A stretch of 64,000 nucleotides of DNA from Catajapyx aquilonaris (taxonomy: Eukaryota): contig KZ538154.1 in assembly GCA_000934665.2 (NCBI GenBank), positions 1-64,000 of the forward strand, in the 5' to 3' direction. The notes beneath the pieces were generated by a model that had not been told where the DNA came from, did no database searches, and saw nothing but the letters and a program-made list of their open reading frames with translations. The position numbers and the translations under genes are program-made. Below, piece after piece: positions 59,301 to 62,300 of this stretch (its first letter is position 1; the number at the start of each line of letters is the position of its first letter).

Positions 59301-62300
59301 CAGTTTTTGGGGTGAATAGTGGTACATAGCAATGATGAAAGTGCAGGGGTCCTGAAATCAGCCATTCTGTGGGCTGAGTTTCAGGGGAAGTGAGGGCGCC
59401 ATTTGTCTGAGACAATGTGACGTTGCTCACCCTTGAGGTGAAAACGCACAACCTGAGCTAATCCACTGAAACACCATGTTAATTTGTTGAAAGTTGGTCA
59501 GTGTTACCACCGAATTTGGCCGTGCTTCTCAGGAATTGAGAAATCTTCCAAGTAGTTCTTCCTCTTTTGTGTCTACTGATTTTCCACATCCAATTTCTGA
59601 CATTAAAAATTGCTACAAACAGTTCAAATTTTCTACATGCAGTTTTTTTTTTTCTTCATACATGTCGGTTTACGTGCAAGTAGATGTGGTAATCAATTGC
59701 ATGATCCACATCAGTAGTTGCATTTTGTGAAAATACTTCTGACAGGTCCAATGTACCTTGATGATCAAGATAACATTTCTTTCTTTGTTTTGTGTATCTC
59801 TACAGTGCAAGTTAGACTGAAATTTTCAAAATGCAATACAGGCATTATGCATGTGGATTAGAAATCATAATAAGTAAAAGAGGCAGTCACAGCGAATGCA
59901 TCTGATCATTTTCTCAAAATTCCAGGTACTTGTTCCGGTCTTTCAAGGCAACCAAGTTTTTCCAGACAACCTCCCTGGATTGGGTTGAGGCTGGTCTGCA
60001 GGTGTGTAGGCAGGGCTACAACATGCTCAATCTACTGATCCACCGAAAAAATCTGAACTACCTTCATTTGGACTACAACTTCAATCTGAAGCCAGTCAAG
60101 ACACTCACCACCAAGGAGAGGAAGAAGTCACGTTTCGGAAATGGTTAGTTTTAATGTTAAACAAGCAGGAGCATCAAACCTGTTGGGAATGTTCTACAAT
60201 TTGCTTAATTTTATCTTCACCAGCATTTCACTTGTGCCGTGAGATTCTTCGCCTCACTAAACTGATTGTGGACTCGCATGTTCAGTATCGGCTGAACAAT
60301 GTGGATGCCTTCCAGCTGTCTGATGGCTTGCAGTACATCTTTGCTCATGTAGGGCAACTGACAGGAATGTATCGCTACAAGTACAAGCTGATGAGGCAGA
60401 TACGTATGTGCAAGGACCTGAAGCATCTGATCTACTACAGGTTCAACACCGTGAGTCAACTGCATTCGTAAATTTCAGGGGGGAAATCTCTTAGAAATCA
60501 AATGGAAGCAGGCAGTTTTTGGGCCTAGCCCTGGGGGAAGTGAGGATCGCTTATGCTTGCTGCCCGGGTTTTGCTTTCTCGGAGAGTTTTGCTTGCTCCG
60601 AGGATAAGAGAACACAAATTGCAATATTGGCATATACGCATATATTGGGACATAGCAATGATGAAAGTGCAGGGGTCCTGAAATCAGCCATTCTGTGGGC
60701 TGAGTTTCAGGGGAAGTGAGGGCGCCATTTGTCTGAGACAATGTGACGTTGCTCGCCCTTGAGGTGAAATCGCACAACCTGAGCTAATCCACTGAAACAT
60801 CATGTTAATTTGTCTAAAGTCGGTCAGTGTTACCACCGAATTTGGCCGTGCTTCTCAGGAATTGGGTAAACTTCCAAGTAGTTAGGGTAGTACTTAGGGC
60901 GGGAGTGAAGCCGACCCGGCGGCCAGGGTGTTGGAGTGGCCAGACAGGATCCTGCTGGCCGGCACATGGTGCCTGGGGTACCTGCCACCCTGTCCGTCAT
61001 CTGAAATGAGCAGGGTTGGGGGGTGGGGTGTGGGACCGGTAGTTTATAGTTTTATTTTGACAAGTTTTAATTTAGTTAATATGTCGAGTTAACTTGTGTC
61101 TCTCTTCATCACTAACTACCCCATATAGGGAAATGTCATAATGTTGTTGCAAATATTCATAGTTCAATTCTGACACGGGAATAATATTTTTTTCTGCTGT
61201 TACAGGGACCAGTTGGGAAAGGACCAGGGTGTGGTTTCTGGGCCGCTGGGTGGCGAGTGTGGCTATTCTTCATGAGAGGCATCACACCACTGTTGGAGAG
61301 GTGGCTTGGCAATCTGCTGTCCAGGCAGTTTGAAGGGAGGCATTCCAAGGGAGTGGCCAAGACTGTCACCAAGCAGAGGGTTGAGAGCCATTTTGATCTT
61401 GAGCTCAGGGCATCTGTAAGTATTCAAGTCAGATTTTAAAATTGAGGCATGGTTGTGTTTGTTTCGTAGGATATAATGTATGTGTTAATTTTCTTCATGT
61501 ATGATTTTCGAGATTTTGTCCATATTGTATTGGGTTGTTTCTGTCATAAAATATGCTTACTGAGTAGCTGTGAGACTTGCCAGGGGTTTTGAAATCATCT
61601 GATTTGAGTGCTGAGCCTTAAGTATGGATCAAAGGACTTGTGGTTTGAGACACATAATTTTTGCTCGTTGTAGGGTGTAAAGACATTCATTGAGCACAAA
61701 TTAAATAATTCTGCAGTATTTTAATTGGCAATTGGTTGATGAAAGTGCATTATGGTTTGGAGCACTTTATTTTGTGGCATTTAGACCTTGCATTATTGTG
61801 TTAGGTGATGCATGACATCCTAGACATGATGCCAGAAGGCATCAAGCAAAACAAGGCGAAGACAATCCTGCAGCATCTGTCAGAAGCATGGCGTTGCTGG
61901 AAGGCCAACATTCCCTGGAAGGTGCCAGGTCTGCCCACTCCCATTGAAAACATGATCCTCCGATTTGTCAAGATGAAGGCTGACTGGTGGACCAACACTG
62001 CCCACTACAATCGAGAGAGAATACGCAGGGGTGCCACAGTGGATAAGACAGTGTGTAAGAAGAACTTAGGCAGACTCACACGATTGTACCTCAAGGCTGA
62101 GCAGGAGAGGCAGCACAACTACCTGAAGGTAAATGACAGTTTTTGTTAAGAAGTCTCATTTTTTAAAGCTTGAAATGGACAATCAGACGAAGTGTGCCAA
62201 TATTATGTAGTTCCTGTTGTAGTTGTGAAATTTTGCTACTCTGCTTTAACAGGATGGGCCCTATATCACCCCAGAAGAAGCTGTTGCCATCTACACAACC

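Follow-up and report, generated by a model that had tools for sequence, protein, structure and literature searches.

Methylation of the ribose of C62 (Cm62) is a mapped modification of human U6 RNA and has been assigned to the box C/D small nucleolar RNA (snoRNA) SNORD94, or U94 (PMC7960923, Table 1); knock-down of SNORD94 lowers C62 methylation in human cells and cardiomyocytes (PMC6894857). Cm62 and Cm63 together license the formation of m2G72 in human U6 (PMC13109388). Other U6 methylation guides are SNORD7/mgU6-47, SNORD8/9, SNORD10 and SNORD67, as well as mgU6-47 and mgU6-68 of Drosophila (PMC7960923, PMC3884663). A modification guide is also carried by a Prp8 intron in Drosophila, scaRNA:Prp8 (CR43600), which is conserved in Diptera and Hymenoptera, and its authors remark that guide RNAs for small nuclear RNAs (snRNAs) are often located in splicing-factor genes (PMC4053861). 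Here we describe two copies of a predicted RNA in introns of the Prp8 gene of Catajapyx aquilonaris, within a stretch of 64,000 nucleotides (nt) (positions 1 to 64,000 of contig KZ538154.1, hereafter the window). Each copy is very likely an intron-encoded, SNORD94-type box C/D guide for the equivalent of U6 C62, duplicated between Prp8 introns. In the literature library searched, no account was found of a box C/D guide for U6 that is carried by a Prp8 intron, nor of an invertebrate guide for position 62 of U6.

A preliminary description of this DNA had named PRPF8/Prp8 as the host gene, with which exon translations and spliced contigs agree. The forward-strand stop-to-stop translations from ~56.4 kilobases (kb) to the end of the window are those of Prp8, as confirmed by tblastn against the Prp8-bearing loci presented below, and contigs of run X5, the type of which is unrecorded, connect 59280 with 59926 and 60143 with 60224, across introns with GT..AG ends. 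The intron that contains copy A was therefore removed in run X5. Copy B is located in the next intron but one, the 5' end of which fits the stop of an X5 contig at 60451, its 3' end being placed according to the translation. Run X5 has no cover over either intron and is uninformative on the small RNA itself. The introns, the two predicted RNAs with their parts and the duplicated flanks are as follows.

59281-59925, forward strand: Prp8 intron with copy A, 645 nt, GT..AG, between ..KPQKKR and YLFRSF.. (X5 joint 59278 to 59924, cut +2)
59327-59460, forward strand: copy A RNA, predicted mature form, 134 nt, in the Prp8 intron 59281-59925
59327-59330, forward strand: copy A terminal stem, 5' strand UAGC, pairing with GCUA at 59457-59460 over 4 base pairs (bp)
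59332-59338, forward strand: copy A C box AUGAUGA, one spacer base after UAGC
59341-59351, forward strand: copy A guide GUGCAGGGGUC, 11 nt, after AA, complementary to U6 nt 58-68
59352-59355, forward strand: copy A D' box CUGA, aligned to the SNORD94 consensus
59358-59377, forward strand: copy A hairpin after D', 6 bp, UCAGCC / loop AUUCUGUG / GGCUGA
~75 nt between hairpin and D box, forward strand: copy A variable stretch, from direct reading
59453-59456, forward strand: copy A D box CUGA, from direct reading
59457-59460, forward strand: copy A terminal stem, 3' strand GCUA, pairing with 59327-59330
59461-59557, forward strand: duplicated flank of copy A, no function assigned, 7/97 differences from the copy B flank
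60451-61205, forward strand: Prp8 intron with copy B, 755 nt, GTGAGT..AG, between ..YYRFNT and GPVGKGPG..
60653-60786, forward strand: copy B RNA, with the copy A layout shifted by +1326
60653-60656 and 60783-60786, forward strand: copy B terminal stem, as in copy A
60658-60664, forward strand: copy B C box, as in copy A
60667-60677, forward strand: copy B guide, as in copy A
60678-60681, forward strand: copy B D' box, as in copy A
60684-60703, forward strand: copy B hairpin, as in copy A
60779-60782, forward strand: copy B D box, as in copy A
60787-60883, forward strand: duplicated flank of copy B, from the repeat comparison

The box C/D anatomy proposed initially is present in both copies, with C, D' and D boxes and a terminal stem at the appropriate spacing. 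Boxes, guide, hairpin and stem are identical in the two, which differ by two substitutions in the unconstrained 3' half. The hairpin, with the loop motif UGUGR/UGGGR, is kept in all relatives. In copy A the terminal stem is extended, beyond a small internal loop, by an outer stem formed by AGUGG (59318-59322) and CCACU (59463-59467); the 5' strand of the outer stem of copy B reads AUUGG, which leaves one mismatch. The duplicated unit begins just 5' of this outer stem. Single-sequence folds of the window copies gave z values of -2.0 and -1.4, which are not significant, with the guide paired internally, and were not used as evidence.

The guide pairs in antiparallel orientation with nt 58-68 of U6 (numbered according to the human U6 sequence printed in PMC5467268) over 11 pairs, nine of them Watson-Crick and two G-U, at G59 and G67, with an energy of -21.3 kcal/mol. 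The fifth nucleotide 5' of D', G59347, faces C62. Both the pairing of nine Watson-Crick and two G-U pairs and the choice of C62 by the D'+5 rule, as originally suggested, were thus reproduced on human U6. The target motif, at human nt 58-68 (PMC5467268), is identical in termite U6 (PMC10256727). No second guide 5' of the D box was found that is conserved across lineages, and the stretch at this place differs between the window copies (59444 A/T), although the window and one relative (L060) have GAAAACGC 5' of the D box in common. U1 had been proposed as a second target of the same guide. The modifications of mammalian U1 given in PMC7960923 are only Psi5, Psi6, Am1, Um2 and Am70, a list without such a site, and the U1 proposal, unsupported by it, was set aside on this ground, the pairing itself not being re-examined.

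Compared with SNORD94/U94, the window RNA is likewise an intron-encoded box C/D RNA of ~135 nt, the guide of which directly follows the C box and ends at D'; target RNA, position by the +5 rule and the short hairpin UCAGC...GCUGA after D' are also the same. It differs in its 3' 80 nt, which cannot be aligned, in the guide, where G67 is faced by U rather than C and pairing continues for one more position, to G58, and in its host, Prp8, where it occurs as two tandem intronic copies, whereas the tetrapod-like form found in this study (locus L034) lies in a mS39/PTCD3-like gene. Human SNORD94 is presumably located in PTCD3. With scaRNA:Prp8 the window RNA shares its origin as a small guide RNA from a Prp8 intron; by its description in PMC4053861, however, scaRNA:Prp8 is a box H/ACA RNA predicted to direct pseudouridylation of U1, U5, U7 and U11, not of U6. 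The other U6 methylation guides are box C/D RNAs for U6 2'-O-methylation as well, and they concentrate in nucleoli (PMC7960923, PMC3884663). They have a different guide and target position, and none of them was matched by Rfam in the region 58000-64000.

In this region, which was scanned against 4227 Rfam families with E values up to 10, SNORD94 (RF00613) was the best match of both copies (22.3 bits, E 0.06), and no other family reached E < 1. The alignment spans model positions 1-62 and the last five, and thereby the C box, the guide, D', the hairpin and the terminal stem. At the Rfam gathering thresholds the whole window gave no match. The likeness to SNORD94 claimed before was therefore borne out in that it was the sole family at E < 1, though below gathering, and in that a series of homologues leads from the window RNA to members valid by Rfam.

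The homologues were collected in one scan of metagenome contigs. The search pattern was assembled from the elements that the window shares with the Rfam consensus (C box, 2-4 nt, GYGCAGGGGUNCNGA, 2-3 nt, UCAGC). It matched 62 stretches, corresponding to 61 loci in 37 clusters. With a slightly relaxed expression, 51 distinct full-length sequences were obtained, 49 from the metagenome and the two window copies; three matches without a D box in reach were left out, two being cut by the end of the locus and one decayed. As far as could be tested, the RNA is thus conserved in relatives, in the form of 49 further distinct sequences. When 15 of the 61 loci were run on Rfam, 18 matches with E up to 0.1 were obtained, all of them to SNORD94. 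Four, from vertebrate-type loci, exceed the gathering score (L034 with 118 bits, L041 with 93, L052 with 71 and L033 with 64), and the remaining 14 are invertebrate-type forms of 24.8-45 bits. The predicted window RNA sits at the far end of this graded series, which reaches Rfam-valid SNORD94. The chain to accepted members is continuous, but it was gathered with a pattern taken from the shared 5' module.

Because this pattern imposed the guide, its conservation among the 51 sequences was not counted as evidence. Features not asked for by the pattern were kept too. The hairpin 3' arm GCUGR is found at the right distance in 51/51 sequences, the sixth pair of the hairpin being U-A in 33, U-G in 8, C-G in 6 and C-A in 4. 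A terminal stem of at least 3 contiguous pairs beside the boxes, likewise not imposed, occurs in 49/51, with at least seven compensatory versions (UGAC/GUCA, UGGC/GCCA, CUGU/ACAG, UAGC/GCUA, UUGA/UCAA, UAAA/UUUA and AAGC/GCUU). Stem and hairpin pairs were counted by anchoring on the boxes, as the D boxes were wrongly placed in the window, L036 and L060 rows of a MAFFT alignment of 24 members. In no locus does the likeness to the window RNA extend beyond about nt 52-58. The conserved part consists only of the module formed by the C box, the guide, D' and the hairpin, as an invariant target predicts for its guide.

A weak box C/D-like element (GUGAUGG...CUGA...CUGA) was also seen on the forward strand at 58348-58411, in the Prp8 intron 5' of the exon 58856-59280. 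Its match to SNORD34 (18.9 bits, E 8.3) is far below gathering, and it may be nothing.

The region 59000-61200 was read directly, and the only repeat family found by a repeat search was a pair of direct repeats, 59316-59557 and 60642-60883, of 242 nt with 95% identity and a spacing of 1326 nt. The 134-nt predicted RNAs lie within them on the forward strand, the duplicated DNA beginning ~11 nt 5' of the RNA and continuing for 97 nt 3' of it. The earlier wording of two 134-nt copies holds for the length of the predicted RNA; the duplicated unit is the 242-nt segment. The RNA bodies of the two copies differ at 2/134 positions (59429 A/G and 59444 A/T, with 60755 and 60770 as their copy B counterparts), versus 7/97 in the 3' flanks (Fisher p = 0.037). 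This difference between body and flank, a modest signal, points to a putative RNA under more constraint than the surrounding intron.

When up to 3 mismatches are allowed, the 24-nt string formed by C box, guide and D' has exactly two occurrences in the 64-kb window, and it was matched in 0/100 shuffles; blastn of the repeat unit against the window found no third copy. In two DNA runs the unitig common to both copies had a depth of 65 and 77, compared to 30-38 in single-copy neighbours; this ~twofold depth is a weak hint of two genomic copies. Many dispersed copies, which would have marked the element as a repeat, were thus not seen as far as could be tested, with two copies in the window and ~2x unitig depth.

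The duplicated flank of copy B is followed immediately by a G+C-rich stretch, 60884-61040, that has no second occurrence in the window. Its DNA unitigs, which contain variant letters, have a depth of 54-138 compared to ~36 nearby; a genomic repeat may have been inserted here, where the duplicated segment ends. A dispersed repeat of the window is found at 55999-56104 and 13449-13563, with 83% identity over 115 nt.

Exons of Prp8 flank the RNA in two of the 61 loci, L012 and L060. The RNA of L012 shares the intron position of copy B, flanked by ..YYRFNT and GPVGKGPG... That of L060 occupies an intron following ..PISHRNAVK, a position that is also an intron in L012 and a continuous exon in the window. 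The position of copy A, after ..KPQKKR, is a continuous exon in L012 and represents a third Prp8 position. With exon DNA that matches the window at only 74-80% identity, neither L012 nor L060 is a close relative of it, although a Q/A-rich Prp8 N-terminus is common to L060 and the window. Among proteins of up to 2000 residues, and hence with full-length Prp8 excluded, the best named match of a variable Prp8 fragment of L012 was a partial springtail Prp8 (77%), a weak pointer, and a Prp8 fragment of L060 found no decisive match among proteins of this size. Copy B is probably the older copy, because its intron position is common to the distant relative L012. The recognised hosts in other clusters, and the clusters in which no exon was recognised, are the following.

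13/37 clusters: unnamed gene without Pfam match
3/37 clusters: mitochondrial carrier
3/37 clusters: ribonucleotide reductase small chain, all Rfam-valid (L033, L041 and L052, 64-93 bits), intronic
2/37 clusters: dynein heavy chain
1/37 clusters: mS39/PTCD3-like PPR gene (L034, 118 bits, highest-scoring and tetrapod-like)
13/37 clusters: no exon recognised in the flank examined

Hosting by Prp8 is therefore lineage-specific and not universal in the family, as other lineages use other host genes. It has nevertheless persisted over three lineages and three intron positions, which fits turnover by intragenic duplication, a process of which the window itself offers an instance. This persistence may be selected or neutral. 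Several contigs carry two copies 1-1.4 kb apart, and local duplication is for this reason regarded as a habit of the SNORD94-type family.

The host differs even among the Rfam-accepted forms (ribonucleotide reductase small chain versus mS39/PTCD3-like gene). In two contigs of one metagenome, L005 and L038, a dynein heavy-chain gene carries short forms of the RNA, with ~93 nt from C box to D box, each in a different intron; here again one host gene has two intronic copies.

Intron-encoded snoRNAs are generally processed by debranching of the spliced intron followed by exonucleolytic trimming. By this route, splicing of the Prp8 pre-mRNA would release the intron, which would be debranched and trimmed by exonucleases down to the small nucleolar ribonucleoprotein (snoRNP), with the C/D kink-turn and the terminal stem presumably shielding the particle from trimming. 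The 11 nt 5' of D' would then anneal to the U6 internal stem-loop along its 5' strand, in the manner computed above, and fibrillarin would methylate the ribose of the nucleotide facing position 5 of the guide, which corresponds to human C62. Constraint across lineages would act on the 5' module only (C box, guide, D' and hairpin), the 3' half providing merely a variable stem, a degenerate C'-like motif and the D box. The second copy would have arisen by local duplication of the 242-nt segment from one Prp8 intron into a nearby one. Both copies look intact as far as their sequence tells, and the element is real, so far unannotated and of SNORD94 type, and probably functional; it thus adds to a known family a member whose host gene is new.

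Several points weigh against a functional SNORD94-type guide for U6. With 22.3 bits and a SNORD94 gathering score of 60, the copies are no members of the family by the Rfam cut-off, and an E value of 0.06 is by itself not significant. The metagenome pattern fixed the C box, most of the guide, D' and the hairpin 5' arm, so that their conservation arises by construction. No clear C' box was found in the window copies, where the C'-like motifs are only degenerate (UGUGGG in the hairpin loop and GUGAAAAC ~10 nt before the D box). The U6 sequence on which the pairing was computed is the human one, and the p value for body versus flank is only modest. The window copies lie 466 nt and 419 nt from their 3' splice sites, unlike the RNAs of L012 and L060, which end ~70-80 nt from theirs. 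Duplicates of the SNORD94-type family can moreover die, as the second copies of L025 (2767-2908, with an extra C inside the guide) and of L061 (from 2001, with the 5' module kept and no D box) both look decayed. Finally, the functional meaning of Prp8 hosting is weakened by the variety of hosts, and kept alive by L012 and L060.

Some of these points would suit a SNORD94-type descent in which copy A most likely, or both copies, is a dead duplicate that forms no stable snoRNP: the 3' splice site is distant in both cases, paralogues decay in other lineages, and 97 nt of non-functional flank were carried along in the duplication. Such a fate appears unlikely for RNAs in which every box, the guide, the hairpin and the stem are unchanged in both copies, the two substitutions are confined to the unconstrained 3' half and the body is better kept than the flank (2/134 versus 7/97), and of which copy A has an extra outer stem. 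We consider it very improbable that the element is a functional box C/D RNA acting mainly on the U1 segment or, by a D-box guide, on a ribosomal RNA site instead of U6 C62. According to the preliminary description alone, the U1 motif would be complementary to a 9-nt core of the guide as well, and the window shares GAAAACGC 5' of the D box with L060; but the mammalian U1 list contains no 2'-O-methyl C in that region (PMC7960923), the stretch 5' of the D box is neither the same in the two copies (59444 A/T) nor conserved across lineages, and the D' guide is the very part in common with SNORD94, the knock-down of which lowers Cm62 in human cells (PMC6894857). That the element is a short interspersed repeat or an accidental C/D look-alike can hardly be maintained, even though the duplicated unit is longer than the RNA and a possibly repetitive G+C-rich stretch adjoins copy B. 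There are just two copies in 64 kb, with ~twofold unitig depth in two DNA runs, a relative has the RNA at the orthologous intron position with exon DNA only 74-80% identical, and the same series contains compensatory stem changes and Rfam-valid members.

Outside the Prp8 region, the window contains a single-exon LPGAT1-like acyltransferase gene at 42940-43992 on the forward strand. Among the best 120 matches of its protein, the named ones are all from insects, with 53-56% identity over ~97% of the query. This points broadly to an arthropod, most likely one without close kinship to any of these named insects; the protein atlas yielded no signal as to taxon.

The SNORD94-type guides of the Prp8 introns and their homologues extend the SNORD94/U6-Cm62 family, which Rfam recognises in vertebrates, to invertebrate genomes, arthropod-like ones among them; the forms found there would be missed by annotation at the Rfam gathering cut-off because they score below it. 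This would imply that methylation of the U6 internal stem-loop at C62 is ancient in animals. The family also offers a clean case of snoRNA host-gene turnover, with at least seven host genes within one small family, together with the opposite pattern, persistence in Prp8 despite divergence of the exon DNA to 74-80% identity. It is a speculative and rather doubtful proposal that Prp8 hosting of the U6-Cm62 guide is old and has been selectively maintained in arthropods, through repeated intron-to-intron duplication and loss, to couple the supply of the guide to Prp8 expression. The Prp8 protein cradles the catalytic stem-loop of U6. If the proposal were true, supply of the guide for this stem-loop would be tied to transcription and splicing of Prp8, providing a built-in stoichiometric or feedback link within the tri-small nuclear ribonucleoprotein, and the link would extend to a second modification, m2G72, via Cm62 and Cm63 (PMC13109388). 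The Prp8 protein and the U6 stem-loop that it binds constitute a testable case of whether the choice of a snoRNA host gene is functional or neutral.

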